Below are positions 1-52,046 of a DNA stretch of 55,181 nt, piece after piece. Location of the stretch: assembly GCA_041665405.1 (NCBI GenBank), contig JBAYIZ010000007.1, positions 1-55,181 on the forward strand, in the 5' to 3' direction. Position 1 is the first letter of the stretch. Every line of letters begins with the position of its first letter. The stretch is from Candidatus Magasanikiibacteriota bacterium. GTDB taxonomy: Bacteria > Patescibacteriota > Patescibacteriia > Magasanikbacterales > GWA2-37-8. Position numbers and translations under genes: made by a program. The notes under the pieces are model-generated. The model had not been told where the DNA came from, made no database searches, and saw only the letters and a program-made list of their open reading frames with translations.

Positions 1-56
1 ATTCGCAAATTAATACATGCAGATCTGCTCGCAGCTCTGTGGAGAAAAGAAAAACT

Positions 57-137
57 GCCCAGGTGGTGTAATGGTAGCCACGCAGGACTTAAAATCCTGT
101 TCCTTCGGGAGTGCGGGTTCGAGTCCCGCCCTGGGCA
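57..137 (+). tRNA. tRNA-Leu (anticodon UAA)
   Basis: Acceptor GCCCAGG/CCTGGGC. Anticodon stem CAGGA/TCCTG with loop CTTAAAA gives UAA. Long variable arm TTCCTTCGGGAGT. T-arm GCGGG-TTCGAGT-CCCGC, discriminator A. Confidence 0.9.
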
Positions 138-169
138 CAAAAAAGAAGCCTTTTTTAAAGGCTTCTTTT

Positions 170-907
170 TTATTTTTTAGTTGAACTTTTTTCCCAGAGA
201 TAATTAAAATATTTTATTATCGATTCGGCGGCAGCACGACTGCTGATATTAAATACCAACGGTGGTTCATCTTCGGGTAACATGATAGACAACTCATCTT
301 CGCAAACATTAAACCACATAGGCATTTCCATCCCTTCTGGTAAATATCTGGCTCCAGACAGTGGCGAAGAATTTCTGAAATCTACAAATTTTTGGTCGAC
401 GGTTCTATCATAGAGACCTTTAAAATACATTCCTTTTTTTATTCTTTGTTTGTGAAATTGTTTCCAATGTTTATCAAGTTCTGGTTGTACATTGTATTTT
501 GACGCGCCCATAACATAAATGGTTTTACCAGATGGTGCATCAAGTTTTTTAAAAGTGGCTCGAACAATCCCATCCAGTCCTTCATAAACTCCGATTTCGC
601 GTGGTATTTGTTTTTGTTTTTCTTTTAATTCGTTAGCTATTTCTTTGGCTAATTTCTTTTTTTGTTCAGCTTCATCCACTAGATGTGCAGGGTCATTTGC
701 AACAAATAGAAACACTCCTTTATATTCAATTTTGCTCACCAAATCTCGCCCAACCAGCTCGTCTAAAGATAAATATACCACACTTCTAGGTAAGCCGGAT
801 TCCTTTACCACCTCTCCTGCCTTGGCTCTTCCCAATTCCATCAGGGCTAAATAAACGGTGGTTAAATTTTTGGAAAATCCAAATTTTTTCAGTTTTGATT
901 CTATCAT
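170..907 (-). CDS. TrmB-like winged-helix transcriptional regulator
   Basis: 245-aa ORF. The N-terminus (LTTVYLALMELGRAKAGEVVKESGLPRSVVYLSLDELVGRDLV) looks like the TrmB-family HTH, followed by a coiled-coil linker and a C-terminal domain. Confidence 0.65.
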   Translation of the reverse strand: MIESKLKKFGFSKNLTTVYLALMELGRAKAGEVVKESGLPRSVVYLSLDELVGRDLVSKIEYKGVFLFVANDPAHLVDEAEQKKKLAKEIANELKEKQKQIPREIGVYEGLDGIVRATFKKLDAPSGKTIYVMGASKYNVQPELDKHWKQFHKQRIKKGMYFKGLYDRTVDQKFVDFRNSSPLSGARYLPEGMEMPMWFNVCEDELSIMLPEDEPPLVFNISSRAAAESIIKYFNYLWEKSSTKK

Positions 908-934
908 ATTTGTCCATTATATTTGGACATATTA

Positions 935-963
935 AATATACCATAATTAGCTAAATTTGTCAA
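935..963 (-). promoter_or_regulatory. Sigma70-like promoter of the TrmB-like gene, followed by a 6-bp inverted repeat (911-929)
   Basis: Minus strand reads TTGACA (963..958), N17, TATATT (940..935). TGTCCA-N7-TGGACA at 911-929 lies between the -10 and the ATG and is a possible operator. Confidence 0.5.
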
Positions 964-1026
964 CATATTATAATTAATGTAATGAATAATTTGACAGTTA
1001 TTTGGCTAAAATAAGCAATTATACCC

Positions 1027-1055
1027 TTGACAAATCCATAAAGTTGTGATAATAT
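1027..1055 (+). promoter_or_regulatory. Sigma70-like promoter reading into GC-enriched island A
   Basis: TTGACA (1027-1032), N17, TAATAT (1050-1055). Divergent from the TrmB-like gene. Confidence 0.55.
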
Positions 1056-1167
1056 TAAATGTTTCATTATTGAAAAACAATGAAACAGCCCACAAAAGGA
1101 TAAATTATCCTGTTTCGATGAAAGTCGGGATGAAACGGGCTAACTCTTTCACAATTCTGAGGGCACC

Positions 1168-1530
1168 ATGGAACGCAAGGAATTTGAAGCGCGACTTTGT
1201 ACAATTCTTGGCCAGGACAGTTTGCCTGGTTGTATGAGTTGTTGTGTCCCATGCGAAATCTGGGAACCCATGTTTGGTCATGAGTACATTCTGGGAGGTT
1301 CCAAGTATGCGAAATGTCGATTGCAGACCTCTCGTAGTCCCACCAAACATCAGATGTCCGGGATCCTGTATCTGATCCATGATGTTGGTCTGGTTTGCGA
1401 GGAAGTTTTGTCTCCCAATGTCAATGGTGGAAAGGTCTTCTTGAGCAAAACTTGCCTCAGATGTATCAGTGGCACTGACTTCGTGGATGCTGTATTCGAG
1501 GCGATTGAGCGTAAGAAGGAGGTGCTGTGA
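1168..1530 (+). CDS. Hypothetical Cys-rich 120-aa protein (island A). Strand and coding status are uncertain.
   Basis: ATG is preceded by GAGGG. The promoter and terminator are on this strand, and codon position 1 is G-rich. However, a fully in-register antisense ORF (1105..1551, 148 aa, GTG start) is also open. Confidence 0.4.
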   Translation: MERKEFEARLCTILGQDSLPGCMSCCVPCEIWEPMFGHEYILGGSKYAKCRLQTSRSPTKHQMSGILYLIHDVGLVCEEVLSPNVNGGKVFLSKTCLRCISGTDFVDAVFEAIERKKEVL

Positions 1531-1634
1531 CTGAGTGTATTCGGGTCTCACTCACCCGCGTTGGTCGGCACGCAGTCCGACACTCATGCGTCTCCCGCTG
1601 GCACAATGCCAGCGGGATGTGGCATCGGCACTAA

Positions 1635-1700
1635 ACCATCGGCCTACTACATTAGAGTAAAAAATTTTTACTTTGATGTAGCCGATGGTTTTTTGTTTTT
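1635..1700 (+). terminator. Long imperfect hairpin plus T-run ending the island A transcript
   Basis: ACCATCGGC...GCCGATGGT arms followed by TTTTTTGTTTTT. Confidence 0.55.
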
Positions 1701-1773
1701 GTATTGTCTCAATGATAAAAAGATGATAGTATTTAATTTGTGAAATGATTATTAATTTGTTTAAAATAATTTT

Positions 1774-2643
1774 ATGCCAAAAGATAAATATACCGCCGTG
1801 TGGGTTTCACATACATCTATCTCCGATTGGCTCAAATGTCCGCGTGCTTATTATTTGAAAAATGTTTATCGTGATCCAGTGACTAAACACAAAATAAAGA
1901 TGATGTCACCGGCGCTGGCTTTGGGGCAGAGTGTGCATGAGGTGTTGGAATCATTATCTCAGTTGGCACGTGGTAGTCGATTTAGCGAACCATTACCAAC
2001 AAAATTTGAACGCGCTTGGGCAAAAGTAAAAGGTGAAAAAGGTGGTTTCACCAACGATGACACAGAATATGGATACAAAAAACGCGGATTGGAAATGTTG
2101 GCGCGTGTGTATAATCATCCTGGTCCGATAAATAATTTGTCGGTAAAAATTCAGATGGATTTGCCGTATTATTGGTTGAGTGAAGAAGATAATATTATTT
2201 TATGTGGCAAGGTGGATTGGTTGGAATATTTGCCAGACACGGATAGTGTACATATCATAGATTTTAAAACAGGAAAAATTCAAGAAGAAGAAAGTTCGTT
2301 GCAGTTGCCAATATATAGTTTGCTAGTTTCTAAATGCCAAAAAAGAAAAACCAGTAAGGCTAGTTATTGGTATTTGGCGGAAAATGATAATCTAACCGAA
2401 AAACAAATTCCTGATTTGGAAGAATCAGAAAAAAAGATTTTAGAAATTGCGCAAAAAATGAAAGTGGCGCGGCAAATAAATCGTTTCAAATGTCCAAATG
2501 GGGAAGAAGGGTGTTTCGCTTGTAAACCGTTTGAAGCTATATTAAAAAAAGAAGCGAAGTTGGTCGGGCAAGATGAATATGGAGCAGATGTGTATATAAT
2601 GGATAGGGCAGAGGAAGAAAATAGAGATGGGGAAATTTTGTAA
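1774..2643 (+). CDS. PD-(D/E)XK nuclease, Cas4/AddB-like, with a probable 4-Cys cluster
   Basis: 289 aa. GKVDWLEY...HIIDFKTGK (D...D/E-x-K) and LQLPIYSLL (QxxxY). One N-terminal Cys (WLKCPRAYY) plus C-terminal CPNGEEGCFACKP. Confidence 0.65.
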   Translation: MPKDKYTAVWVSHTSISDWLKCPRAYYLKNVYRDPVTKHKIKMMSPALALGQSVHEVLESLSQLARGSRFSEPLPTKFERAWAKVKGEKGGFTNDDTEYGYKKRGLEMLARVYNHPGPINNLSVKIQMDLPYYWLSEEDNIILCGKVDWLEYLPDTDSVHIIDFKTGKIQEEESSLQLPIYSLLVSKCQKRKTSKASYWYLAENDNLTEKQIPDLEESEKKILEIAQKMKVARQINRFKCPNGEEGCFACKPFEAILKKEAKLVGQDEYGADVYIMDRAEEENRDGEIL

Positions 2644-2645
2644 AC

Positions 2646-2712
2646 AAAAAAACCACTCGTTGCCAATAAGTTCAATGATTTAAACTCATTGGCATGGACG
2701 AGTGGTTTTTTT
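2646..2712. terminator. Bidirectional hairpin terminator
   Basis: AAAAAAACCACTCGT...ACGAGTGGTTTTTTT with inner TGCCAAT/ATTGGCA pairing. Flanked by an A-run and a T-run. Confidence 0.7.
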
Positions 2713-2766
2713 ATTCTCCTTCCAAGCCTGACCCCGACATAGTCGGGGTGTGCTGGGGGTGGGAGG

Positions 2767-3159
2767 CTACGGGCGCTTGTCGTCGACGGGATCATCGTCG
2801 CCATCATCGTCGTCGAGGGGGTCATTATCGTCATCCTCCTCGTCGTCGAATTCATCGACGTCGAACTCCTCCTCCTCATCCTCCTCGTCGTCTTGTTCTG
2901 TCGGACGCAACACGACGTGGCCGCGGTTCACTGCCAGCTTTCTAAGAGCGGCCCCAGCGACCAGTGGTCCGAACCCGAAGACGAGGAACACTGCCCCGCA
3001 GATCGCCATTTGATCCTGGTAATTGCGGAAGACGTCGACATCCTCCTCACCAACGACCCTCGTCAAGAGAACCACGAAGACGGTCGCACTGAGTGCAAGC
3101 ACCGCCGCTCCAATCCAGGACAGCACTCGACCGACGAGATGTATGGTCTTGGGCTTCAT
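2767..3159 (-). CDS. Hypothetical 2-TM membrane protein with a poly-acidic C-terminal tail (island B)
   Basis: 130 aa. Two hydrophobic helices, then TEQDDEEDEEEEFDVDEFDDEEDDDNDPLDDDDGDDDPVDD. G/C-ending codons. GC hairpin ACCCCGAC-ATA-GTCGGGGT (2731-2749) lies downstream. Confidence 0.6.
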   Translation of the reverse strand: MKPKTIHLVGRVLSWIGAAVLALSATVFVVLLTRVVGEEDVDVFRNYQDQMAICGAVFLVFGFGPLVAGAALRKLAVNRGHVVLRPTEQDDEEDEEEEFDVDEFDDEEDDDNDPLDDDDGDDDPVDDKRP

Positions 3160-3237
3160 TCAGCACCTGCCTTGATTCCAATTCAGAAAACTTTCCACGC
3201 TCATGCGCGGCCAGTCATTCCGAAGTTGATGTGACTT

Positions 3238-3267
3238 ATTCTAGCTAAATATTTAGCTCATTGTCAA
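3238..3267 (-). promoter_or_regulatory. Sigma70-like promoter for the island B gene, with a 16-bp perfect palindrome in the spacer
   Basis: Minus strand reads TTGACA (3267..3262), N18, TAGAAT (3243..3238). AGCTAAAT/ATTTAGCT at 3243-3258. Confidence 0.45.
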
Positions 3268-3397
3268 TTATTGTTGGAGAACGACCAATTCAACTGTGGA
3301 TAACTATTGATCAAATATCTCAAAAAATGTCATTTTTCCTTATATATTAGCCAAGAATCGGCAAAAAACTTGACAATTTCATCTTTGCTCGCTTCAT

Positions 3398-3426
3398 TTG
3401 ACAAAACTTCATTTTTGTATTATTAT
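3398..3426 (+). promoter_or_regulatory. Candidate rpoBC promoter, which would give a ~290-nt leader
   Basis: TTGACA (3398-3403), N17, TATTAT (3421-3426). Confidence 0.45.
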
Positions 3427-3720
3427 TTATCCGCTTTCGTGAGAAGGTCACGTACTTCAAAAAAACGCTTAACAAAGCAATAAAGTGGCATTTATCAGTT
3501 TGGTAAACCAGCTACTTGCAAGGTAATTCAATAAAATTTTTTTCATGCTAACCTTGCCGTTTTCCGCTAAAATATAACGAAAAAGCCATAAAAGCCTATT
3601 TTTTTGGCACTTTTTTTGTTTGTATTTTCAGATTCCCACTCCCCACTTTCGTGAGGACAAGCTTCGCGGGAATGACAATCATCAATTTTTTATAAAAAAT
3701 TTATTTAAAAACTTCACCTT

Positions 3721-6700
3721 ATGCCTGTATTCAAACGCCAAGCACTCAAGGAAAAAGATAGAAAGTTTTTTACAAAAGTAAAAAATACTATCCCATTGCC
3801 AAACCTTATTGAATTGCAATTGGATTCATATAATTGGTTTGTAAAAAATGGCATTAAAGAATTATTTGAAGAAGTTTCTCCAATTACCGATTTCTCTGGA
3901 AGAAATTTGGAGTTATATTTTGAAGACTATTATTTGGATGAACCTCGTTTTGATGAAGCGACTTGCAAAAAACGCAACGTTACTTTCGAGGCTCCACTTC
4001 GTATTACTGCGCGTTTGACCAATAAGGCAACCGGTACTACAAAATCTCAAGAAATTTATTTGGGCGATGTACCAATGATGACCAATCGTGGTACTTTCAT
4101 TGTGAACGGTATCGAACGGGTTATCGTTTCTCAGCTTATTCGTAGTGCTGGTGCTTTTTTTACTGCTCAGAGTGAACGCGGACGTCGCTATTATGGCGCC
4201 AAAGTTATTCCAAATCGTGGTGCTTGGCTTGAAATCGAAACTGATATTAACAATGCAATTTGGGTGAAGGTAGATCGCAAACGTAAAGTGGCCGTCACTT
4301 CTCTTTTGAAATCTTTTGGTTTTGATGATGAAGAAAAAATTCGCGCATATTTCAAAGATGTAAATAATCATCCTACTATCGACTATGTTGATGCCACACT
4401 GAAAAAAGATTTGGCAAAAAATATGGACGAAGGTTTGATTGAAGTTTATAAACGTATTCGTCCTGGTGATTTGGCAACTTCTGAAAATGCTAAAGGTTTA
4501 ATCCATTCCATGTTTTTCAATTTCGAGAGATATGATTTGGGTCGCGTGGGTGTTTATAAATTCAATACCAAATTTGATTTACCTTCCAAATCTGAAGATT
4601 ACGACAACAAAGAAAATCGCGTGTTGTCTACCGAAAAATTATTGGCAGTAATCAAAGAAGTGATTCGTTTGAATGTCACTCAGGAAGAACCAGATGATGT
4701 AGACCATCTTGGCAATCGCCGTATTCGCGCGGTAGGTGAACTTGTACAAAATCGTTTTCGTGTTGGTTTGGCTCGTATGGAACGTATTGTGAAGGATCGC
4801 ATGAGTACATATGATGTCGAACAACTGGTACCAAACAAAGTTATCAACGCTCGTCCAGTAATGAGTGCCATTCGTGAATTCTTTATGAGTTCACAGATGT
4901 CACAGTTTATGGATCAGCACAATCCATTGTCTGAGCTTGAGCACAAACGTCGTTTGTCCGCTCTTGGCCCAGGTGGTTTGTCTCGTGATCGCGCTAGTTT
5001 CGAAGTTCGCGATGTACACACTACTCACTATGGTCGCATCTGTCCGATTGCTACTCCGGAAGGTCCGAATATTGGTTTGGTAAATCACCTTTCCAGTTAT
5101 GCTCGTATCAATGAATTTGGTTTTATCGAAACTGCTTATCGCAAAGTTTTGCGTGAAGTAAAAAATGAAGTCTCTTTGACTGAAGGTGAAATTTTGCGCG
5201 GCGACGTCGGTAGTATAAAAGATGGTACAAAAATTACCAAAGAAATTGCTACTAAATTGGCCAAAGAAAAAGTAGCTGTAATAAAAGTGAAGCCACGTGT
5301 TACCAATGAGGTAATTTATTTGAGTGCTTTCAAGGAAGAAAAATATATTACTGCTTCTGCCAAAACCAAAACAGACGATGAAGGATATTTCCTCGAAGAT
5401 TATGTGCCAGCTCGTGTCAACTCCAAACCTGGTGTGGCCAAAACTATTGATTTAGAATTTATCGATGTTTCATCCGCACAAATTGTGAGTGTGGCTACTT
5501 CTTGTATTCCATTTTTGGAACATGATGATGCTACTCGCGCTTTGATGGGTACAAACATGCAGAGACAGGCTGTACCTTGTATTCGCCCAGAACCACCATT
5601 GGTTGGTACTGGTGTAGAACATGAAGCGGCTGTTTATTCTGGTCAGGTAGCTATCGCTGATGAAGATGGTGAAATCGTAGAATGTGATGGTGCACATGTG
5701 GTATTAAAAGGTAAGAAAGAAACTCATACATATAGTTTAAATAAATTTTTACGTGCCAACGCCGCCACTTGTATCAACCAACATCCGACAGTTGTTGTTG
5801 GACAAAAAGTAAAGAAGGGCGACTTCTTGAGTAATGGTCCAAGTATTGCAGAAGATGAATTGGCTCTTGGTCAAAATGTATTGGTAGCATATATGGCATG
5901 GGATGGTTTCAATTATGAAGATGCTATTATCGTGTCTGAACGAGTAGTACAAAAAGATCGTTATACTTCTATTCATATTGAGGACTATACAATCGATGTT
6001 CGCGAGACAAAACTTGGACCGGAAGTTGTCACTTCTGATATTCCAAATGTTTCTGAAGAAAAATTAAAAAATCTTGATTCCGAAGGCATTGTTCGCATTG
6101 GTGCCGAAGTAAAATCCGGCGACATTTTGGTAGGCAAAATTACTCCAAAAGGTGAAACAGAATTATCCGCAGAAGAAAGATTGTTACGTGCCATCTTTGG
6201 TGAAAAAGCTCGCGATGTTCGTGACTCTTCCTTATATCTGGAACATGGTGAACATGGAAAAGTTATCGGCATTCAGATTTTCTCTGAAGAAGCTGGTGAT
6301 AAATTGGAACCAGGTGTTATAAAACAAGTACAAATCACAGTGGCTGATATGCGCAAAATTCAGGTAGGTGACAAAATGGCTGGTCGCCATGGAAACAAAG
6401 GTGTTATTTCCAAAGTTGTTCCTTCTGAAGATTTACCATTCTTGGAAGACGGTACTCCTATTGATATTGTACTTTCACCATTGGGTGTTATTTCTCGTAT
6501 GAACTTGGGTCAGTTGCTCGAAACTCATTTGGGTCTAGCCGCCAACGCCCTTGGATATAAAGTGGCTACTCCAGTTTTGAACGGTGTGACTGAAGAACAA
6601 ATTTATGAAGAATTGAAAAAAGCTGGTCTGCCAGTTTCTGGTCAGGCTCAACTTTATGATGGTCGTACCGGTGAACCTTTTGATCACAAGACTACTATTG

Positions 6701-7164
6701 GCTACAACTACATGTTGAAATTGAACCACATGGTAGAAGACAAGATTCATCAACGTTCTATTGGTCCTTATAGTCTTATTACCCAACAGCCTTTGGGTGG
6801 TAAAGCTCAGTTTGGTGGCCAGAGATTTGGTGAAATGGAAGTCTGGGCACTGGAAGCTTATGGTGCCGCTCATACCTTGCAAGAAATTTTGACTATCAAA
6901 TCCGATGATGTCCCAGGTCGTTCAAAAGCCTATGAAGCCATTATTAAAGGTGAAGAAATTACTCGTGTAAATATTCCAGAATCCTTCAATGTATTGGTTC
7001 GTGAAATCAAAGGCCTTGGATTGGATGTAGAATTATTAAAACGTTCAGAATCCGGTGAGTATACAACTATAGAAGAAGTTACTGCTGAAGAAGATAAACA
7101 AAACAAGAAAAATGAAAACGCCCTTGATGACTTGAATAGTCAGCAGGATACTTCTAATAAATAA
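3721..7164 (+). CDS. rpoB: DNA-directed RNA polymerase beta subunit
   Basis: 1147 aa with conserved beta-subunit blocks (e.g. GDKMAGRHGNKGV, FGGQRFGEMEVWALEAYGAA). Confidence 0.97.
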   Translation: MPVFKRQALKEKDRKFFTKVKNTIPLPNLIELQLDSYNWFVKNGIKELFEEVSPITDFSGRNLELYFEDYYLDEPRFDEATCKKRNVTFEAPLRITARLTNKATGTTKSQEIYLGDVPMMTNRGTFIVNGIERVIVSQLIRSAGAFFTAQSERGRRYYGAKVIPNRGAWLEIETDINNAIWVKVDRKRKVAVTSLLKSFGFDDEEKIRAYFKDVNNHPTIDYVDATLKKDLAKNMDEGLIEVYKRIRPGDLATSENAKGLIHSMFFNFERYDLGRVGVYKFNTKFDLPSKSEDYDNKENRVLSTEKLLAVIKEVIRLNVTQEEPDDVDHLGNRRIRAVGELVQNRFRVGLARMERIVKDRMSTYDVEQLVPNKVINARPVMSAIREFFMSSQMSQFMDQHNPLSELEHKRRLSALGPGGLSRDRASFEVRDVHTTHYGRICPIATPEGPNIGLVNHLSSYARINEFGFIETAYRKVLREVKNEVSLTEGEILRGDVGSIKDGTKITKEIATKLAKEKVAVIKVKPRVTNEVIYLSAFKEEKYITASAKTKTDDEGYFLEDYVPARVNSKPGVAKTIDLEFIDVSSAQIVSVATSCIPFLEHDDATRALMGTNMQRQAVPCIRPEPPLVGTGVEHEAAVYSGQVAIADEDGEIVECDGAHVVLKGKKETHTYSLNKFLRANAATCINQHPTVVVGQKVKKGDFLSNGPSIAEDELALGQNVLVAYMAWDGFNYEDAIIVSERVVQKDRYTSIHIEDYTIDVRETKLGPEVVTSDIPNVSEEKLKNLDSEGIVRIGAEVKSGDILVGKITPKGETELSAEERLLRAIFGEKARDVRDSSLYLEHGEHGKVIGIQIFSEEAGDKLEPGVIKQVQITVADMRKIQVGDKMAGRHGNKGVISKVVPSEDLPFLEDGTPIDIVLSPLGVISRMNLGQLLETHLGLAANALGYKVATPVLNGVTEEQIYEELKKAGLPVSGQAQLYDGRTGEPFDHKTTIGYNYMLKLNHMVEDKIHQRSIGPYSLITQQPLGGKAQFGGQRFGEMEVWALEAYGAAHTLQEILTIKSDDVPGRSKAYEAIIKGEEITRVNIPESFNVLVREIKGLGLDVELLKRSESGEYTTIEEVTAEEDKQNKKNENALDDLNSQQDTSNK

Positions 7165-7175
7165 TTTTTTCTCCT

Positions 7176-10100
7176 ATGAACCGCGATTCAACAAAAACTG
7201 CAAACTTTGATGCGATTCGTCTGCGCCTGGCTTCTCCGGAAACCATTCGCGCTTGGTCTTTTGGTGAGGTAAACAAACCAGAGACTATCAACTATCGTAC
7301 TCAAAAACCAGAAAAAGGTGGCTTGTTCGCCGAAGAAATTTTTGGGCCTACCAAAGATTGGGAATGTTATTGTGGAAAGTATAAAAAAATTCGCTACAAA
7401 GGAATTGTTTGCGACAAGTGTGGGGTAGAAGTTACTACCTCATTGGTTCGTCGTGAACGTATGGGTCATATCGAATTGGCCGCTCCAGTAGCTCATATTT
7501 GGTTCTTGCGTTCTGTGCCTTCCAAAGTTGGTTTGATTTTGGATGTGCCAGTGCAAGCTTTGGAAAAAGTTATTTATTTTGCCGCCTTTATTATTTCTCA
7601 TGTAGATGAAGAAGGTAAGCGCAAAGCTAGTGATCAGATGCGTCAGGAATATAAATCCAAAAAGAAACAAATCGAACATGAATCAGAAGTCGAAATCAAA
7701 AAAGCCAATGATCAAAAATTGGGCGCAGAATTTTTGGAAAAAATTCAACATGAAATGGAGCGCAAACAGGTTGCTTTGGAACAAGATTTCATGGCCGCCG
7801 ATAAAGAATTAAAAGAATTACAAGTTTTGAAAATTTTGTCTGAGAATCATTATCAGGAATTGTCTTTGCGTTTTGGACATTTGTTTGAAGCGGGCATTGG
7901 TGCTGAGGCAGTTTACAATTTATTGGAAAGAATAAATATTCCAGACACCATCAAACAGATTATCGATGAACAAACTACTTCAAAGGGTGCAAAATTGGAA
8001 CGTTTGATCCGTCGCCACAAATTGCTGAACAGTTTGAACGTCAACAAGATTCGTCCAGAATGGACCATCATGAAATGTATTCCAGTTATTCCTCCAGATC
8101 TTCGCCCAATGGTGGCTTTGGATGGTGGGCGTTTTGCTACTTCCGATTTGAATGATTTATATCGTCGTGTTATCAATCGCAATAATCGTTTGCGCCGTCT
8201 TTTGGATCTTGATGCTCCAGAAGTTATTTGTCGCAATGAAAAACGCATGTTACAAGAAGCGGTGGATGCTTTGATTGATAATAATGCTCGTCATGCCAAA
8301 ACTGTTTTGGCCGCCACTGGCCAAAAACGTCAGTTGCGTTCATTGGCAGATATTTTGAAAGGTAAACAAGGCCGTTTCCGTCAGAACTTGTTGGGTAAAC
8401 GCGTAGATTATTCTGGTCGTTCTGTTATCGTCGTAGGTCCACAATTGAATATTGATGAATGTGGTTTGCCAAAACGCATGGCCCTAGAACTTTTCAAACC
8501 ATTTATCATGGGTGAAATTATCAAACGTGAACTGGCTCACAATGTGCGCTCTGCTTCTCGTTATATTGAAGCCGAACATGATGAAGTTTGGGATATATTG
8601 GAAGAGCTAACTCAGAATACTCGCGTAATGTTGAATCGTGCTCCAACTTTGCATCGTCTTGGTATTCAAGCTTTCCACCCTCGTTTGGTAGAAGGTAAAG
8701 CTATTCAGTTGCATCCTTTAGTTTGTACTGCTTTTAACGCTGACTTCGACGGCGATCAGATGGCTGTGCATTTACCTTTGACTGCCGAAGCTCGTTGGGA
8801 AGCAGAAAATTTGATGGCCGCAGAAAAGAACCTGCTCAAACCAGCTACTGGTCAACCAGTAATCACCCCTAAACAGGATATTGCTTTGGGTTGTTTTTAT
8901 CTCACCAACTATCATAGTACTGACACTGCTCCTGCCACAAAATATTTTTCATCTACCAAAGATGCAAAATTGGCATACAAATGTCGGGCTATCACTTTGC
9001 ACAAAAGAATTATTGTTCGTTTCAACGAAACTGAATTGAGCAAATTCCCAGAAGGAACAAACAAAATGATTGAGACTTCTTTGGGACGTATTTTGTTTAA
9101 TGAAATTTTACCAGATAAGATTTCTTATTACAACGAAACTATTACTGTAAAGAAAATGGCTGAGGTTATCCGTTTCTGTCTTGAATTTTACGGTCAGGAA
9201 ACCACCGCTCATTTCTTGGATGAATTGAAAAATTTGGGTTATCGTTATGTTACCAAATCTGGCTACTCTCTAGGTATTGCAGATTTTCCGAAGATTGAGG
9301 AAAAATTATCTTTGACTTTGGCTGCAGATAAACAAGTAGCTGAAGTAGAGGAACAATATCAAGAAGGTTTGTTGACTCAAGCAGAACGTCACGCCAAGAT
9401 TTTGGAAATTTGGACTTCAACAAAAGATAAAATCGTTGCCAACAACCAAAAGAACTTGGACAAAAACGGTCCAGTATTCGCCATGATTGAATCTGGTGCT
9501 CGCGGTACTTGGGGTCAGCTTGGTCAGGTTATCGGTATGAAAGGTTTGGTAGTATCTCCATCTGGTGATATTATCGAATTGCCTGTAAAAGGAAACTTTA
9601 AAGAAGGTTTTGATGTATTGGAATATTTTATTTCTTCTCACGGTACTCGTAAAGGTTTGTCTGATACGGCTTTACGTACCGCCAACGCTGGTTATTTGAC
9701 TCGTCGTTTGGTAGATGTGTCTCAAGATGTAGTAATTTTGGAAGAAGACTGTGGCGATACCACTGGTGAAATATTTACTGTCGCTCAATCCAAAGAAATG
9801 GGTGAAAAACTGGCCGATCGCGTTTGGGGTCGCTATGTAATTTCTGAGGTAAAAGTTGGTAACAAAGTATTTGTAAAAGCTGGTGAAGTTATTGACGATA
9901 AGACTGCTCGTGCTATTGATGAAGCAGGAATAACTGAAGTGCATGTACACAGTGTATTGCAATGTAAATTACCAAAAGGTTTTTGTCGCAAATGTTATGG
10001 TTATGATTTGGCGCACAACAAACCAGTAGAATTTGGTACAGCTGTCGGTATTATCGCCGCTCAATCTTTGGGTGAGCCTGGTACTCAGCTTACTTTGCGT

Positions 10101-11054
10101 ACTTTCCACTCTGGTGGTGTTGCTGGTGTTGATATCACTCAAGGCTTACCTCGTATTGAAGAATTATTTGAATGTCGTCCCCCAAAACGTAAAGCTGTAC
10201 TATCTGAAGTAGATGGTAAAGTAGAAATTGAAGATGCGGATGGTAAAATTGTTACTTCTCCTACTGGCAAAAAGATTTTCGAAGGTCGTCGTGGACAAAA
10301 AATTCTCAAAGTTCACTTCGAAGGAATGGAAGAAACAAAAATCAAATTTGATAGTGGCGATGAAGTGATGGTAAAAGATGGTGATGAAGTGGCTCCAGAT
10401 CAAGTAATTTTGGTACGCGGTACTTCTGGTGAAGAAGTCACTGCCAAATATCAGACCAAAGTGAAACTTGGTAAAAACAACATGACCCTGTCTTATGTTG
10501 GTCCAAAAGTTCGTGAATATATTATTCCATTAGGTTATAAATTGTACGTCAAAGAAGGCGAACAGGTAACAAAAGGACAACAGATGACCGATGGTAGTAT
10601 CAATTTGCAAGAGCTATTTGAACTAAAGGGTCGTCCAGCTGTTCAACGATATGTCTTGCAAGAAGTACAGAACATCTATTCTTCTCAAGGTCAGAAAGTA
10701 AATGATAAGCACGTAGAGTTGCTCATCTGCCAAATGTTTAGTCGTGTGCAGATTGAGGAAGCTGGTGAAACAGAATTGTTGCCAGGTGAAGTGGTAGAAA
10801 AAGCACAGTTCATGTATGCCAATCAGATGGCCAAAAAGAATGGATCCAAACCGTCAACTGGCAAAGAATTGTTGTTTGGTGTGTCTCGCGTGGCACTTTC
10901 CACTCAAAGTTTCTTGTCATCTGCTTCGTTCCAAGAAACTGCCAAGGTATTGATCAATACTGCTCTTACTGGCAAGATCGACTACCTCGAAGGTTTGAAG
11001 GAAAATGTGATTATCGGACGCTTGATTCCAGCTGGTACTGGGTTCAAGAAATAG
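7176..11054 (+). CDS. rpoC: DNA-directed RNA polymerase beta-prime subunit
   Basis: 1292 aa. Zn motif CYCGKY...CDKCGVEV and catalytic NADFDGDQMAVH. Confidence 0.97.
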   Translation: MNRDSTKTANFDAIRLRLASPETIRAWSFGEVNKPETINYRTQKPEKGGLFAEEIFGPTKDWECYCGKYKKIRYKGIVCDKCGVEVTTSLVRRERMGHIELAAPVAHIWFLRSVPSKVGLILDVPVQALEKVIYFAAFIISHVDEEGKRKASDQMRQEYKSKKKQIEHESEVEIKKANDQKLGAEFLEKIQHEMERKQVALEQDFMAADKELKELQVLKILSENHYQELSLRFGHLFEAGIGAEAVYNLLERINIPDTIKQIIDEQTTSKGAKLERLIRRHKLLNSLNVNKIRPEWTIMKCIPVIPPDLRPMVALDGGRFATSDLNDLYRRVINRNNRLRRLLDLDAPEVICRNEKRMLQEAVDALIDNNARHAKTVLAATGQKRQLRSLADILKGKQGRFRQNLLGKRVDYSGRSVIVVGPQLNIDECGLPKRMALELFKPFIMGEIIKRELAHNVRSASRYIEAEHDEVWDILEELTQNTRVMLNRAPTLHRLGIQAFHPRLVEGKAIQLHPLVCTAFNADFDGDQMAVHLPLTAEARWEAENLMAAEKNLLKPATGQPVITPKQDIALGCFYLTNYHSTDTAPATKYFSSTKDAKLAYKCRAITLHKRIIVRFNETELSKFPEGTNKMIETSLGRILFNEILPDKISYYNETITVKKMAEVIRFCLEFYGQETTAHFLDELKNLGYRYVTKSGYSLGIADFPKIEEKLSLTLAADKQVAEVEEQYQEGLLTQAERHAKILEIWTSTKDKIVANNQKNLDKNGPVFAMIESGARGTWGQLGQVIGMKGLVVSPSGDIIELPVKGNFKEGFDVLEYFISSHGTRKGLSDTALRTANAGYLTRRLVDVSQDVVILEEDCGDTTGEIFTVAQSKEMGEKLADRVWGRYVISEVKVGNKVFVKAGEVIDDKTARAIDEAGITEVHVHSVLQCKLPKGFCRKCYGYDLAHNKPVEFGTAVGIIAAQSLGEPGTQLTLRTFHSGGVAGVDITQGLPRIEELFECRPPKRKAVLSEVDGKVEIEDADGKIVTSPTGKKIFEGRRGQKILKVHFEGMEETKIKFDSGDEVMVKDGDEVAPDQVILVRGTSGEEVTAKYQTKVKLGKNNMTLSYVGPKVREYIIPLGYKLYVKEGEQVTKGQQMTDGSINLQELFELKGRPAVQRYVLQEVQNIYSSQGQKVNDKHVELLICQMFSRVQIEEAGETELLPGEVVEKAQFMYANQMAKKNGSKPSTGKELLFGVSRVALSTQSFLSSASFQETAKVLINTALTGKIDYLEGLKENVIIGRLIPAGTGFKK

Positions 11055-11064
11055 TTTAAATTTG

Positions 11065-11096
11065 AAAAAGACCTCGCGTTCGTCGAGGTCTTTTTT
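11065..11096. terminator. Bidirectional intrinsic terminator between rpoC and the TrmB-like gene
   Basis: AAAAAGACCTCG-CGTTCGT-CGAGGTCTTTTTT. Confidence 0.8.
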
Positions 11097-11101
11097 ATTT
11101 A

Positions 11102-11881
11102 TTATTTATTTTGTTCCCACAATACTTGAAATATTGATCTAAACATCGTTACGATATATTCATCTTCTATGAGTAGGGCTAGAGGAGTTTTTGGTTGCCA
11201 AATAATAATTTTGTTCGCATAAAGATGAAACGAAGTTGGAAAGTTTTGCATATTTTTTATATAACGAGTTTCGCGCTTTTGTTTTGCGTCGTCTAGTTTT
11301 AATTTTTCTGCATCTGAGCCACCAAATATCAAAGCCTTCATGAATATTTGTTTTTTTAGTCTTTGGGCAATCCATTTTTCTTCTTGAGCCCAACCGATGA
11401 AACCACTGATTAAATCTTGGACAGATCCGCAATAAATAATTTCATTTTTGCTTTCATCAAGTACTTCAAAAAAGATTTTTAAAAATTGATCTTTTCCTTC
11501 AAAAATTTTTACCGATGTCGGCAGTTCACCTTGTCTATATAAAGTCAGTAGATCAGGCAGGGCAGAGTAAAGTTTTACATCCTGTTCACTCAGTGATTCT
11601 CTTTTTTTTGCAAGCAACTCACGCACCAATGTGGGAGATTCAACCATAAAAGTTCGATTGTGTTTTTTTCGTTCCGAAAATTTCGCCAATCCGTGATTTT
11701 CTAGCTCAGAAATAATCTTATAAATGTTGGGGCGATTAATATTTAACTGTTTTGCAAGTTGGCTTATTGAAACAGGGCCAAGAGAGAGTGATGTGGTATA
11801 CAGTTCAATTTCGTGATTTGTTAACCCTAACGCCTTTAATGAACTGTAAAGCGTTTCTTTTATTTCTATTTGGCTAAACAT
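11102..11881 (-). CDS. TrmB-like winged-helix transcriptional regulator (second copy)
   Basis: HTH region LGLTNHEIELYTTSLSLGPVSISQLAKQLNINRPNIYKIISELENHGL. Start moved to MFSQIE (11881) because the -10 box at 11915..11910 lies inside the longer ORF. Confidence 0.65.
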   Translation of the reverse strand: MFSQIEIKETLYSSLKALGLTNHEIELYTTSLSLGPVSISQLAKQLNINRPNIYKIISELENHGLAKFSERKKHNRTFMVESPTLVRELLAKKRESLSEQDVKLYSALPDLLTLYRQGELPTSVKIFEGKDQFLKIFFEVLDESKNEIIYCGSVQDLISGFIGWAQEEKWIAQRLKKQIFMKALIFGGSDAEKLKLDDAKQKRETRYIKNMQNFPTSFHLYANKIIIWQPKTPLALLIEDEYIVTMFRSIFQVLWEQNK

Positions 11882-11909
11882 AGAGAAAAAGTTAAATATA
11901 TGTATATAT

Positions 11910-11938
11910 ATTATATACAATAATGCTTAATTTGTCAA
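11910..11938 (-). promoter_or_regulatory. Promoter of the second TrmB-like gene
   Basis: Minus strand reads TTGACA (11938..11933), N17, TATAAT (11915..11910). Confidence 0.55.
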
Positions 11939-11955
11939 GTGTCAGCCTAAAACAC

Positions 11956-11984
11956 TTGACAAATACGTATAAATAGTATATAAT
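11956..11984 (+). promoter_or_regulatory. Promoter reading into GC-enriched island C
   Basis: TTGACA (11956-11961), N17, TATAAT (11979-11984). The two -35 boxes are part of the inverted repeat TTGTCAAGTG (11932-11941) / CACTTGACAA (11953-11962). Confidence 0.6.
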
Positions 11985-12010
11985 AATCAGTTATTAAATA
12001 ACAAATGGCC

Positions 12011-12049
12011 GCTCCAGCGTGGGTTTAAGTCTTAAACCCACGCTGGAGC
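12011..12049 (+). repeat. 39-nt perfect palindrome (19-bp arms) in the island C leader
   Basis: GCTCCAGCGTGGGTTTAAG-T-CTTAAACCCACGCTGGAGC, followed by two more small hairpins (12055-12070 and 12074-12091). Confidence 0.85.
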
Positions 12050-12132
12050 CGATTCCGATCATGAGATCGGGTGCCAGGGCTTATGTCCTGGTTCCATTGG
12101 ACGGTATAGTTCTTTCACAATTGAGGTGTAAT

Positions 12133-12771
12133 ATGTCACGTCGAATCCTGGTCGTTGAGGACAATGCGAAGCATCTGGATGACGCCCGCGCCTATGCGGC
12201 TGATCTTATCGAGTGTGAAGTGGATTTCGCCACTACGCTCGCTGAGGCGATGGTCTTGCTAACGGCGAACAAGTACGACGGCGTGATCTCGGATGTGTTT
12301 TTCCCGGCGGACGATCAGTCCTCGGCTGACACGTTCGAGAACGCTCTCGCGCTCAACAAGAAGCTCCGTGAAATGCGGATTCACCACGTGTTCAACACGG
12401 CGGGGAACCATCACGGCAAAAAGTATGACGGCTTCTTGCACAAGACGCCAGAACTGATCTGGGTTCCTGGGAGTGAATATCCCGGCGATTTGTTCGTCAG
12501 CTCCGGCATGGTCATCGAAGCATATCCCCATGATAGTGATGGGGAGCATGCGACCAAGCAGTGGCAGGCGGCGTTCCGATATATATTGCTCTCTCTTGCA
12601 TTTCTCGAAATGCCAGACATGGGCCAGGATATCGTTCAAAGCCAGGAGCACCTGGGTGAGAAGTCGGCGCTTCGTTCTTTCCCCTACGGAGATTACGGTG
12701 AGCTGACCGAGAAGTTCTGGGGTTGCATGGACGAGCGCGTTCTTGCGATCTTTGCTCAGTTCAACGCCTAG
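12133..12771 (+). CDS. Orphan receiver (REC)-like domain protein with an uncharacterised C-terminal half (island C)
   Basis: 212 aa from the ATG preceded by GAGGTG. MSRRILVVEDN then DGVISDVFFP resemble receiver beta1 and beta3 acidic residues. No kinase or output domain was recognised. Confidence 0.5.
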   Translation: MSRRILVVEDNAKHLDDARAYAADLIECEVDFATTLAEAMVLLTANKYDGVISDVFFPADDQSSADTFENALALNKKLREMRIHHVFNTAGNHHGKKYDGFLHKTPELIWVPGSEYPGDLFVSSGMVIEAYPHDSDGEHATKQWQAAFRYILLSLAFLEMPDMGQDIVQSQEHLGEKSALRSFPYGDYGELTEKFWGCMDERVLAIFAQFNA

Positions 12772-12795
12772 CTCAACACCTCACAAACACGCCCT

Positions 12796-12824
12796 TGCCC
12801 CGCGGCGTATCAAATAGCGGGGCA
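12796..12824 (+). terminator. GC-rich hairpin after the island C ORF
   Basis: TGCCCCGC-N13-GCGGGGCA. Only a weak T-run follows. Confidence 0.4.
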
Positions 12825-12970
12825 CAATCTTTAGAAAATCATAAATTGGTTTGTTGAAGATTGAATCAAAGAATAATTATATGCACTCACTAAATCAACG
12901 GGTGATGTTTTATTCCCTTGATTTTTGATTTTAAAGTGGTAAAATAGAGCCAGAATTATAACATATATTT

Positions 12971-13696
12971 ATGTCAGGACATTCAAAGTGGCACAATATC
13001 CAACAGCGTAAAGGAAAACAGGATGCGAAACGCAGTAGTATGTTTTCTAAGTTTTCTAAAGCAATTTCGATTGCGGCACAAAAGGGTGGGGCGGATCCGG
13101 AGACAAATTTTTCTTTACGACTGGCGATTGAGAAGGCCAAAAGTGTAGCGATGCCTAAAGACAATATTGATAGAGCTATAAAAAAAGGAACAGGTGAAGT
13201 TGGGGATGGGGCTCAAATCGAAGAAGTCTTGTATGAGGCATATGGACCTGGCGGAGTGGTGATTGTTATTAAATGTTTGACCGACAATCGCAATCGTACT
13301 AGTGCAGATATAAAACATACATTATCCAAGAGCGGTGGCACACTTGGTAGCAGTGGGAGTGTGATGTGGATGTTTGATCTGTTGGGATTGATTCAAATTG
13401 AAACTTCAAAATTACCAGCCGATCGAGACACTTTTGAAATGGATATGATCGAGGCTGGGGCAGAAGATATTTCGGTTGAAGATAATCAAGTAGAAATAAA
13501 AACAAAATTGGAAAATTTTTCTAAAGTATTAAATAAATTAAAAGAGCTTGGTATTGAGCCAGACGATTCTGGTTTGCGGTATATTGCCAAAGATGAAGTG
13601 GCGATTAGTGACGAAGTGCGTGAACAAATTTCCAAGTTGTTTGAGGTATTGGAAGATAATGATGATGTGGAAGATTATTTTACCAACGCAGGTTAA
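12971..13696 (+). CDS. yebC: YebC/PmpR-family transcriptional regulator
   Basis: MSGHSKWHNIQQRKGKQDAKR N-terminus, 241 aa. Confidence 0.9.
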   Translation: MSGHSKWHNIQQRKGKQDAKRSSMFSKFSKAISIAAQKGGADPETNFSLRLAIEKAKSVAMPKDNIDRAIKKGTGEVGDGAQIEEVLYEAYGPGGVVIVIKCLTDNRNRTSADIKHTLSKSGGTLGSSGSVMWMFDLLGLIQIETSKLPADRDTFEMDMIEAGAEDISVEDNQVEIKTKLENFSKVLNKLKELGIEPDDSGLRYIAKDEVAISDEVREQISKLFEVLEDNDDVEDYFTNAG

Positions 13697-13703
13697 AAAT
13701 ATT

Positions 13704-14204
13704 ATGCCAAAACAAGAAATAATTTTGGGGATTGATCCTGGTTTTGGTCGAATGGGTTTTGGAGCGATTGAAAAAATGAAAACTGGAGAATGGCGGTCTT
13801 TGGATTATGGTTGTATCGATACTTCACCCAAGAAAAAGTTTGTGGAGCGTTTGCAGGAAGTGTATGAAGCGGTGGAATTTATTATCAAGAAATACAAACC
13901 ATCGGTAGTGGGAGTAGAGAAATTGTATTTTGCTAGAAACGTGACTACGGCTATCGAAGTGGCTCAAGCGCGTGGCGTAATTTTACTCTGTGCAGTACAG
14001 GCTGGACTACAAGTGGATGAATATACTCCTCAACAAATCAAGCAGGCGATTACTGGCTATGGTAAAGCGGAAAAACAACAGATGCAAAAAATGGTCGCAA
14101 TGATTTTGGGAATAAAGGGTAAAATAAAATCAGATGACGCGGCCGATGCGTTGGCAGTAGCACTTTGTACAGGACAAAGTTTGTGGGTTAAAAAAGTTAA
14201 ATAA
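13704..14204 (+). CDS. ruvC: Crossover junction endodeoxyribonuclease RuvC
   Basis: ILGIDPGFGRMGFG start motif and C-terminal DDAADALAVAL. The longer ORF (13548) overlaps yebC and is rejected. Confidence 0.85.
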   Translation: MPKQEIILGIDPGFGRMGFGAIEKMKTGEWRSLDYGCIDTSPKKKFVERLQEVYEAVEFIIKKYKPSVVGVEKLYFARNVTTAIEVAQARGVILLCAVQAGLQVDEYTPQQIKQAITGYGKAEKQQMQKMVAMILGIKGKIKSDDAADALAVALCTGQSLWVKKVK

Positions 14205-51158: not shown

Positions 51159-51371
51159 TTGATGTTAATCTATGAACTAGATTAAACAGTTCTTTGATAT
51201 TTACCCAGTTTTCTTTTTAGTTTATTTTAGACAAATATATTAAAAAGAAAACTGGGGGGAATTTAACACTTGTAGTGTTTTATTCCAAGGTGAACTATTC
51301 ACAAGCAGGAGCATACGATGAGCAACAGCTCGAAGCATGGCGTCGTGGTTGACAAGATCATCGCTCTTTAG

Positions 51372-51926
51372 ATGGGGTTGGTCGCCGCGTGGAACTGGCT
51401 CATGGTCTTCCTTACGGTCAAGGACCTTCCTCCTAGGTTCCCGCAAGGTTTTCCTTCTGCAGCCATTGCTGCCGAGCACGGCTTCACCGTGCTGAGTGAT
51501 ACCGAACCGAGTGCCGATCTCGACGTGACGAAGCTCTATTTCAGGTCGGTGTTCTGTGACACTCAAGCACGTAGGGTTTCAGGTAGTAGTTTCTGGGAAG
51601 TGTATTTCAATGGAGTCTTTCGGTGTGCACGGCCTTGGGGGTGTCTTGGCCTCTGCGACGCACCGAGACTGTTGGCTCAGATAGATAAGGCCACCGGTTT
51701 CGACATGACCAACGGAGAGGTCTTGCTCCTTGGTACGATCTTGGCCGAAGAAAGAACCGGCCGCCGCGCCGTCGGCTGCCTCAGGACCTGCAAAGGCCCC
51801 GAGAAGAACCCCAAATGGCATTGGGCTTTGGGGTTCTTGTACACGACCAATGATCGGGTTGGGTCGGTTAGATTCACCACATCACCCTATGGCGGCTGCG
51901 CGACCACGATCGTGAGTCGCGAATAG
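51372..51926 (+). CDS. Hypothetical 184-aa protein (island D), preceded in frame by a 17-codon ORF (51318-51371) ending in TAG
   Basis: Third codon positions are predominantly G/C in this frame and less so in the in-register antisense frame. GGAG lies 6 nt before the ATG at 51318. No family recognised. Confidence 0.45.
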   Translation: MGLVAAWNWLMVFLTVKDLPPRFPQGFPSAAIAAEHGFTVLSDTEPSADLDVTKLYFRSVFCDTQARRVSGSSFWEVYFNGVFRCARPWGCLGLCDAPRLLAQIDKATGFDMTNGEVLLLGTILAEERTGRRAVGCLRTCKGPEKNPKWHWALGFLYTTNDRVGSVRFTTSPYGGCATTIVSRE

Positions 51927-51980
51927 TTTCAGAGCATCGCATCAGTCACTTCGGTGCGGCGTGTCTGGACTTGTTTTTCT

Positions 51981-52046
51981 GCCCTCGGCATTTCTGTTCT
52001 CACCAATCGGTGGGGGTAGCAATGTCCGAGGGCTTTGCTATTTTTT
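51981..52046 (+). terminator. Compound GC hairpin plus T-run ending island D
   Basis: GCCCTCGGCAT...ATGTCCGAGGGC with inner CACC-AATC-GGTG, followed by TTTGCTATTTTTT. Confidence 0.6.

Follow-up and report, generated by a model that had tools for sequence, protein, structure and literature searches.

A conserved palindrome spans the back-to-back promoters of a TrmB-like regulator gene and a GC-rich receiver-like gene in a bacterium of the Candidate Phyla Radiation

Introduction

In archaea, the regulators TrmB, TrmBL1 and Tgr share a PF01978 winged helix, a long helix and a C-terminal effector-like domain, and their operators are palindromes located at promoters (TACT-N3-AGTA or, in the case of TGM, TATCAC-N5-GTGATA). 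The characterised archaeal TrmB proteins are autoregulated, bind inverted repeats and control glycolytic and gluconeogenic genes (PMC4158304). In bacteria of the Candidate Phyla Radiation (CPR, or Patescibacteria) almost nothing is known about transcription control, and in the literature searched we found no paper that combines TrmB with CPR or Patescibacteria. Here we describe locus 2, which consists of a TrmB-like gene (trmB2), a GC-rich gene divergent from it (cargo 2) and the promoter region between them. Locus 2 is part of a 55,181-nucleotide (nt) stretch of DNA (the window; GenBank assembly GCA_041665405.1, contig JBAYIZ010000007.1, positions 1-55,181) from a Candidatus Magasanikiibacteriota bacterium, an uncultivated low-GC groundwater member of the CPR (GC content of the window, 37.8%).

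The candidate regulatory site of locus 2 is palindromic and located at a promoter, like the archaeal operators, and the TrmB2 orthologs described below face a PEP-utilizers/PPDK_N operon, which can be compared with the central carbon genes that archaeal TrmB controls besides its own. Locus 2 differs from the archaeal systems in having bacterial sigma-70 promoters instead of TATA/BRE elements and a half-site (TGTCA/TTGACA) that coincides with the -35 box, a single element thereby spanning two promoters, and in that PF11495 is not detected by sequence in TrmB2. In tetR/tetA and many LysR- and MarR-type pairs, regulator and target genes diverge, and one palindromic operator overlaps the promoters of both. 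Locus 2 has the same divergent layout with a shared palindrome and is best placed in this known class of autoregulated repressors that act on divergent promoters through a common palindromic operator, but its regulator is of another family, the arms of the palindrome are the -35 hexamers themselves and an acquired gene has taken the place of the original target. The xenogeneic silencers H-NS, Lsr2, MvaT and Rok recognise AT-rich foreign DNA by its composition. The idea of a resident DNA-binding protein that restrains acquired genes is common to both cases, but at locus 2 the foreign DNA has a higher GC content than the host, and it is native promoter DNA that contains the candidate site.

The best full-length structural match to TrmB2 is TrmBL2 (TK0471 / PF0496), a protein of similar size (roughly 260 amino acids, aa) that coats DNA with little sequence specificity (PMC3031468, PMC4877046), whereas locus 2 has a discrete operator-like site with fixed phasing. 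The nearest published parallel comes from Thaumarchaeota, in which genes for stand-alone receiver (REC) domains are divergent from ArsR-type helix-turn-helix (HTH) regulator genes (Galperin et al. 2018, PMC5847659). As in locus 2, a receiver without output domain is placed head to head with a winged-helix regulator; unlike in Thaumarchaeota, the regulator is of the TrmB and not the ArsR type, the hosts are CPR bacteria and DPANN archaea, and the receiver scores below the Pfam cut-off and carries an extension of about 100 aa. Locus 2 thus offers a precise candidate operator for what seems to be one of the commonest CPR regulator families, and would be a concrete case of an acquired gene wired in through a captured resident bidirectional promoter. 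The link between TrmB and receivers hints at how signalling may be coupled to transcription in organisms that have no response regulators of the classical DNA-binding kind.

Results and discussion

TrmB2 and the promoter region of locus 2

The elements on the trmB2 side of locus 2 and in its intergenic region are (positions are those of the window):

11102-11881, minus strand: trmB2, encoding a 259-aa TrmB-family regulator, between rpoC and the yebC-ruvC cluster
11901-11919, no strand: palindrome P2, TGTATATA-ATT-TATATACA, covering the trmB2 -10 box and predicted start site
11910-11938, minus strand: trmB2 promoter, -35 TTGACA (11938-11933), 17-nt spacer, -10 TATAAT (11915-11910), 12/12 consensus positions
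11930-11964, no strand: composite palindrome P1, the proposed operator, with perfect 13-nt arms and a conserved core
11956-11984, plus strand: outward promoter, now facing cargo 2, -35 TTGACA (11956-11961), 17-nt spacer, -10 TATAAT (11979-11984), 12/12 consensus positions
11990-12002, plus strand: small hairpin or palindrome GTTAT-TAA-ATAAC at the 5' end of the outward transcript, the last segment that can be aligned with orthologous loci

An initial annotation of the window had placed two near-consensus promoters back to back at this locus, with their -35 hexamers in a shared inverted repeat. Both promoters were confirmed and are perfect: within positions 1-14000 they are the sole 12/12 matches to TTGACA-17-TATAAT, and the next-best matches precede rpoB, trmB1, cargo 1 and another GC-rich gene. 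The inverted repeat is real and longer than annotated. In its full form P1 reads ATTTGTCAAGTGT-N9-ACACTTGACAAAT, with arms at 11930-11942 and 11952-11964, and no perfect 13-nt repeat with a loop of at most 20 nt arose in 60 first-order Markov simulations of the window. Its core consists of TTTGTCAA (11931-11938) and TTGACAAA (11956-11963) separated by N17, and the spacer contains an inner near-palindrome, TCAGCCTAA (11942-11950), of which the genome sequence searched holds no more further copies than expected by chance. P2 could be a second candidate operator, for autorepression. Three independent assemblies contain the islet junctions described below, and one 4.8-kb contig covers 11024-13500 with even depth; therefore, the junctions are not chimeras, and an assembly artefact of this kind was ruled out. 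No islet-free strain variant of locus 2 was seen among the contigs examined.

As annotated, the window encodes two TrmB-like paralogs. Both exceed the PF01978 (TrmB) cut-off of 25.6 bits (TrmB1, 50.3 bits; TrmB2, 47.1 bits), although they are only 23% identical (E 7e-12), and a third TrmB-like open reading frame (ORF) was not found in the window. TrmB2 has more than 160 homologs in CPR (identity 48-82%), the closest named of which are annotated as Candidatus Magasanikbacteria, and is a vertically conserved core CPR gene. The AlphaFold2 (AF2) model of TrmB2 (predicted local distance difference test score, pLDDT, 84.8) contains a winged helix-turn-helix, a 36-residue helix (residues 83-118) and a C-terminal alpha/beta domain. 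Its best matches in the Protein Data Bank by Foldseek are TrmBL2 (5bpd, E 6e-15), TrmB (3qph, E 6e-10) and an effector domain (2f5t, E 1e-5), while the effector-domain sequence model PF11495 gave no match at E <= 0.1.

Conservation of the palindrome in TrmB2 orthologs

DNA of three ortholog loci was compared with the window (L078, 79% identity; L080, 71%; L082, 65%), and for a further one, P0051, we used a gene list only. When anchored on P1, the four sequences align without gaps from the outward -10 box to the trmB2 ATG, which occupies the same column in all of them, and the trmB2 promoter is conserved. Eight of the 8 positions of TTTGTCAA and 7 of the 8 of TTGACAAA are invariant, and all three 17-nt spacings are the same in the four loci. 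The inner palindrome is kept in the orthologs as TTAGGCTAA or TTAGCTAA (TTAG(G)CTAA), and the arms of P2 (TTGTATA/TATACAA) are retained in the three of them even where the centre is altered. This establishes the conservation of the core of P1. Beyond approximately position +10 of the outward transcript, only 5% of the positions are invariant. The counterparts of the small palindrome at 11990-12002 in the orthologs (CATTAA..TTAATG, GTTAA..TTAAC and, twice, GTTAAC) co-vary, and the homology of the window to the ortholog loci stops near 12004.

The gene on the other side of this promoter region has been exchanged. The divergent partner in L078, L080, L082 and P0051 is an operon encoding HD and PEP-utilizers proteins, to which PPDK_N is added in L082 and in which Ppnp comes first in P0051 and L080; accordingly, the genes that come first after the outward promoter are those of the HD/PEP-utilizers operon in L078 and L082 and Ppnp in L080. 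None of these operon genes is present in the window. Because the ancestral divergent partner of TrmB2 is a housekeeping operon, TrmB2 is not a regulator dedicated to foreign genes. A partner operon with PEP-utilizers fits the carbon-metabolism theme of the TrmB family. In L082, two GC-rich ORFs (4946-6194 and 6369-8480; GC about 0.60, genome about 0.40) lie directly 3' of the TrmB2 ortholog and adjoin a TrwB/type IV secretion system (T4SS) coupling-protein gene, which suggests a conjugative element.

TGTCA/TGACA repeats upstream of other TrmB-like genes

We surveyed 373 kb of non-redundant related DNA for the pattern TGTCA-N(3-21)-TGACA. Seven of its 11 occurrences fall in the 150 nt that precede the start codon of a TrmB-like gene. 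Such zones account for 1% of the sequence, and the repeats are thus about 60-fold concentrated there; an eighth one, in L023, overlaps an annotated TrmB-like start. The repeats were found also upstream of TrmB-like genes that are not orthologous. In L023, L038 and L056 the spacing is N7, and the repeat either abuts the TrmB-like start codon or pairs with a hexamer without a usable -10 box; therefore, these repeats do not represent two working promoters. This distribution favours TGTCA/TGACA as a putative half-site of CPR TrmB-like proteins that coincides with the sigma-70 -35 box.

A compositionally foreign unit downstream of the outward promoter

Past the outward promoter, the window contains a GC-rich islet, which we call islet C, with the following elements:

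12004-12098, plus strand: structured 5' leader in which a closing stem carries three hairpins; the stem at 12011-12049 is perfect over 19 bp
12005-12830, plus strand: islet C (leader, gene and 3' hairpin), GC-rich and compositionally foreign, starting about 15-20 nt past the predicted outward start site
12111-12126, plus strand: TCTTTCACAATT and, directly after it, GAGG (12123-12126) as Shine-Dalgarno sequence; the 12-mer is shared with cargo 1, where it also stands before the ribosome-binding site (1145-1156)
12133-12771, plus strand: cargo 2, encoding a REC-like protein of 212 aa that lacks an output domain and has a conserved extension at its C terminus
12796-12824, plus strand: GC-rich hairpin TGCCCCGC-N13-GCGGGGCA at the 3' edge of islet C, without T-run

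The foreign composition of the islet is established by the GC content of cargo 2 (0.55) and by that of its third codon positions (GC3, 0.68), which in native genes of the window is about 0.30 (0.25-0.38). The presence of a Shine-Dalgarno sequence is a second, independent mark of the islet genes as foreign or specially translated: among 39 native genes (the window has 43 ORFs), 34 have none, 4 a weak purine patch and 1 a GAGG, whereas the GC-rich islet genes bear a GAGG, a GGAG or a purine-rich patch before their start. The start codon of cargo 2 is the ATG at 12133 and neither 12135, as initially annotated, nor the GTG at 12019. Read most simply, the sequence suggests the insertion of a foreign transcription unit about 15-20 nt past the ancestral outward start, and the outward promoter would now drive it. 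Gene transfer among Patescibacteria is extensive (PMC12455944). An origin of the islets as mobile elements or cassettes was rejected: islets A, B and C lack flanking direct repeats of at least 8 nt, no recombinase is located next to the islets of the window, and no relatives were found in IMG/VR or in phage and plasmid collections. Matches to defence systems did not go beyond generic winged-helix similarity.

For cargo 2, 46 homologs were found, which are about 200 aa long and 36-60% identical; all of those named by taxon are from CPR. Its score against PF00072 (16.8 bits) is under the cut-off of 30.2, while several homologs carry precomputed PF00072 matches. In the AF2 model (pLDDT 90.5), only the first 90 or so residues match many REC structures with a Foldseek probability of 1.0 and a template modelling (TM) score on the target of 0.5-0.6, and the second half of the model departs from the canonical (beta-alpha)5 fold. 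Residues E9, D10, D54 and T89 are invariant in 43 sequences of the receiver family, and K104, in a K-T-P motif, is not. As modelled, cargo 2 appears to be an atypical receiver of the orphan type: it lacks an output domain, and about 100 aa of conserved sequence extend its C terminus.

The leader of cargo 2 has a minimum free energy of -65.9 kcal/mol (z = -7.1), and none of 200 shuffled sequences folds as well. Searches of Rfam with this leader, at both gathering and E-value thresholds, gave no family but noise, and the 19-bp hairpin was discarded as a repeated element, its arm occurring once, at this locus only. The hairpin at 12796-12824 is possibly a terminator or a stabiliser. TCTTTCACAATT is present in two exact copies (1145-1156 and 12111-12122), both located 11-22 nt upstream of the ATG of unrelated cargo genes. 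Motifs like TCTTTGAYA or TCTTTCAAT are found in the leader of islet D (about 51191) and in those of GC-rich genes in L004, L039, L047 and L080; the degenerate TCTTTSAYA, a pattern defined post hoc, is not enriched overall (5 found, 3.6 expected), and only its placement in three islet leaders stands out.

Several observations concern receiver genes elsewhere. In L006 (3927-4874), a receiver-like gene is divergent from an rve-family transposase gene and not from a TrmB-like gene, which is consistent with mobility of the region. A 235-nt contig from a freshwater metagenome (run X3) resembles the 3' end of cargo 2 (12581-12815) with 2 differences, and almost no other part of the 2-kb stretch was found there at the low depth of that run. 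In L036 (JBAYUW010000009.1, Paceibacterota), a hammerhead ribozyme core (CUGAUGAG...CGAAAC) at 3470-3513 lies about 100 nt 5' of a GC-rich 272-aa receiver-domain ORF; this candidate scores 25.5 bits with Rfam Hammerhead_3 (E 0.002), under the gathering score of 48.5.

Association of TrmB-like regulators with the receiver family

We analyzed the neighbours of the receiver genes in 44 non-redundant loci that encode relatives of cargo 2, using the other genes of the same loci as control. The immediate upstream neighbour is TrmB-like in 15 of the 44 loci (15 of the 24 in which it is divergent), compared with 8 of the 275 other genes (Fisher p = 2.7e-9). Some of the loci come from DNA labelled as Saccharibacteria, Kaiserbacteria, Woesearchaeota and Nanoarchaeota. 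This establishes a specific, statistically strong and apparently undescribed association of TrmB-like regulators with the receiver family, which we consider well supported. The paired TrmB proteins are not orthologous: they span many clades with mutual identities of 15-30%, and in the window, L004 and L009 the receivers are 58-71% identical and the TrmB proteins 15-23%. A mirror-tree comparison gave no significant co-evolution of TrmB and receiver (r = 0.13). Because the TrmB clades are unlike and the mirror-tree signal is missing, the pairing is re-created rather than co-inherited, and transfer of both genes as a pair was ruled out.

The islets of the window have a GC content of 0.48-0.59, compared with 0.38 for the host. 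Besides islets A (at locus 1, see below) and C, they include:

2700-3240: islet B, with a minus-strand gene at 2767-3159 (GC3 0.71) for a membrane protein with an acidic tail and a promoter at 3267->3238, divergent from rpoB
51255-52040: islet D, with an ORF at 51372-51926 (184 aa, GC3 0.65), divergent from a sugar transferase gene

Islets B and D have near-consensus TTGACA promoters in AT-rich DNA and no TrmB neighbour, and their genes gave no significant match in Pfam or PADLOC. Islets occupy 3 of 6 original head-to-head junctions, and the occupation of both TrmB junctions has a p of about 0.2. Because islets make up 5-20% of these related genomes, chance adjacency is common. In islet D, the TAG of a short ORF at 51319-51374 (MSNSSKHGVVVDKIIAL) abuts the ATG of the 184-aa ORF, and a good Shine-Dalgarno sequence precedes the short ORF and not the long one; this arrangement could reflect translational coupling or a disrupted gene.

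Proposed regulation of locus 2 and alternative explanations

On the conservation of P1 and on what is known of the TrmB family we base the reading that P1 is a dimer site shared by trmB2 and the outward gene, which it would co-regulate, and that the outward promoter has been captured by the acquired gene. We regard this reading as on balance probable, if far from secure; the operator function that the initial annotation had assigned to the repeat is likewise plausible, with the core, the 17-bp spacing and the inner palindrome conserved in three orthologs. What we infer is the binding of TrmB2 at P1, repression by TrmB2 and the nature of the signal. TrmB2, with its TrmBL2-like fold, would regulate its own gene from a compact bidirectional sigma-70 promoter. 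A dimer or tetramer would occupy the 35-bp palindrome TTTGTCAA-N17-TTGACAAA that spans both -35 hexamers and keep RNA polymerase off both -35 boxes, so that trmB2 and the outward gene would be repressed together, and P2, over the trmB2 -10 box and start, would add autorepression. Repression may be lifted by a ligand that binds the C-terminal domain or by the receiver-like protein. The promoter-operator unit would be ancestral to the TrmB2 clade, there controlling the (Ppnp)-HD-PEP-utilizers-PPDK_N operon, and in the window its outward promoter would have been captured by a horizontally acquired GC-rich gene that brought a Shine-Dalgarno site and a structured leader.

Several observations weigh against this interpretation. 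The AGTGT/ACACT complementarity that extends the arms to 13 nt is not conserved in the orthologs; therefore, the conserved unit is TTTGTCAA-N17-TTGACAAA with fixed phasing. Part of the conservation of the arms is explained by promoter function because each arm is a -35 box plus the usual TTGACAA(A/T) extension of this genome. The part that promoter function leaves unexplained, as judged from the alignment, appears to be the fixed spacing and the inner palindrome, and the centre of the latter is 1-1.5 bp off that of the outer palindrome. L069, a 48% identical relative, retains only the left arm. The locus sequence was found among sequencing runs in DNA runs only and in no RNA run. Finally, TrmBL2, which TrmB2 resembles most in structure, acts as a global repressor and as a chromatin protein that is largely non-specific (PMC3031468).

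In an alternative explanation, P1 is a geometric by-product of two strong promoters placed back to back, no protein reads it as a unit, and regulation takes place elsewhere, for instance at P2 or in the leader RNA of cargo 2. The extension that makes up the arms together with the hexamer is found also at the promoters of rpoB, islet B, islet D and locus 1, the complementarity outside the hexamers is not maintained, the leader of cargo 2 is exceptionally structured (z = -7.1) and P2 is conserved at a classical position for autorepression. However, four loci with otherwise diverged flanks share the exact 17-bp spacing and retain the inner TTAG(G)CTAA, and the same half-sites occur at N7 in L023, L038 and L056, where a promoter pair is impossible. 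We consider this explanation unlikely. Another model, close to the dedicated control module for acquired genes that the initial annotation had proposed, sees TrmB-like proteins as gatekeepers or silencers whose dedicated role is to restrain acquired genes, and the slot preceding a TrmB-like gene as a preferred site at which foreign DNA lands and is controlled. In its favour, TrmBL2 is a global repressor and chromatin protein (PMC3031468). The cargo is indeed compositionally foreign and varies between close TrmB orthologs while regulator and promoter stay constant (window versus L078, L080 and L082). The same applies to L004 and L036, in which the TrmB proteins are 86% identical and the GC-rich neighbours different, and in L080 the Ppnp gene at the ancestral partner position is itself GC-rich. 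The survey of neighbours that the initial annotation had called for points the same way: of the TrmB-like genes not found via the receiver gene, 4 of about 7 have a GC-rich divergent neighbour. The whole sample is small, though, and partly ascertained via the cargo, and within the window the occupation of the TrmB junctions reaches a p of only about 0.2 when conditioned on head-to-head junctions. Moreover, the ancestral TrmB2 partner is a housekeeping operon, no TrmB gene adjoins islets B and D, cargo 1 is an ORFan, islets are abundant enough in these genomes (5-20%) for chance adjacency, and there is no integrase, target duplication or repeat at the islets. A dedicated gatekeeper function is thus quite improbable.

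A further explanation, compatible with co-regulation from P1, is that the adjacency reflects a partnership at the protein level, in which the orphan receiver is phosphorylated or switched in another way and modulates the neighbouring TrmB by contact, as a two-component output in archaeal style, and selection re-creates the pairing upon transfer. This is a real but doubtful possibility. In its favour, the enriched pairing (p = 2.7e-9) involves non-orthologous clades of TrmB (15-30% identity) and extends over CPR bacteria and DPANN archaea, and the receiver lacks an output domain while its acidic pocket, D54 and T89 are invariant. In Thaumarchaeota, signalling between proteins has been proposed for stand-alone REC proteins whose genes diverge from those of ArsR-type HTH regulators (PMC5847659). 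The lack of a co-evolution signal (r = 0.13), the absence of the receiver gene next to close TrmB2 orthologs and the absence of a histidine kinase among the called neighbour genes speak against it. More speculatively, and with a rather low likelihood, the TrmB-type regulators of CPR and DPANN and the orphan receiver may form an undescribed two-protein signalling module that is re-assembled repeatedly by gene transfer. The outward promoters of autoregulated TrmB genes would then serve as preferred expression platforms: GC-rich genes that are acquired together with a Shine-Dalgarno site would be placed a short way past the transcription start and come under resident control.

Locus 1

The second TrmB-like gene of the window, trmB1, is also divergent from a GC-rich gene, cargo 1. 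The elements of this locus are:

170-907, minus strand: trmB1, encoding a 245-aa distant TrmB paralog
911-929, no strand: TGTCCA-N7-TGGACA, between the trmB1 -10 box (940-935) and ATG (907), a candidate autorepression site, weak alone
963-935, minus strand: trmB1 promoter, TTGACA (963-958) and TATATT (940-935)
1027-1055, plus strand: cargo 1 promoter, TTGACA (1027-1032) and TAATAT (1050-1055)
1088-1640, plus strand: islet A with cargo 1, GC-rich, with terminal hairpins at 1593-1617 and 1633-1691
1168-1530, plus strand: cargo 1 ORF, 120 aa, GC 0.48, GC3 0.50, an ORFan

The two promoters match the consensus at 11/12 and 10/12 positions, and their -35 boxes are 63 nt apart without a compact repeat. 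The initial annotation had regarded loci 1 and 2 as the same layout present twice. Each TrmB gene is indeed divergent from a GC-enriched ORF (GC 0.48 for cargo 1 and 0.55 for cargo 2), but the regulators are distant paralogs (23% identity) and the repeats different. The repeat at 911-929 is located as annotated, yet it is not significant alone: 6-nt arms are about at chance level in a 250-bp spacer, and TGTCMA-N3-25-TKGACA occurs 2 times in the window versus 0.42 expected, a number reached by 6% of shuffles. The TGTCA-N7-TGACA repeats that abut TrmB-like starts in L023, L038 and L056 are an analogue of this repeat. Cargo 1 has no homolog but itself in 5.8 billion proteins or in 1.84 billion representatives, a full HMMER scan included, and gave no match in Pfam or PADLOC; a weak repeat-protein match was rejected since it covers 36 residues only. 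Downstream, in a neighbourhood without CRISPR array or other cas genes, positions 1774-2643 encode a Cas4-like PD-(D/E)XK nuclease (PF12705, E 4e-21; PADLOC Cas4 models, E 1e-9).

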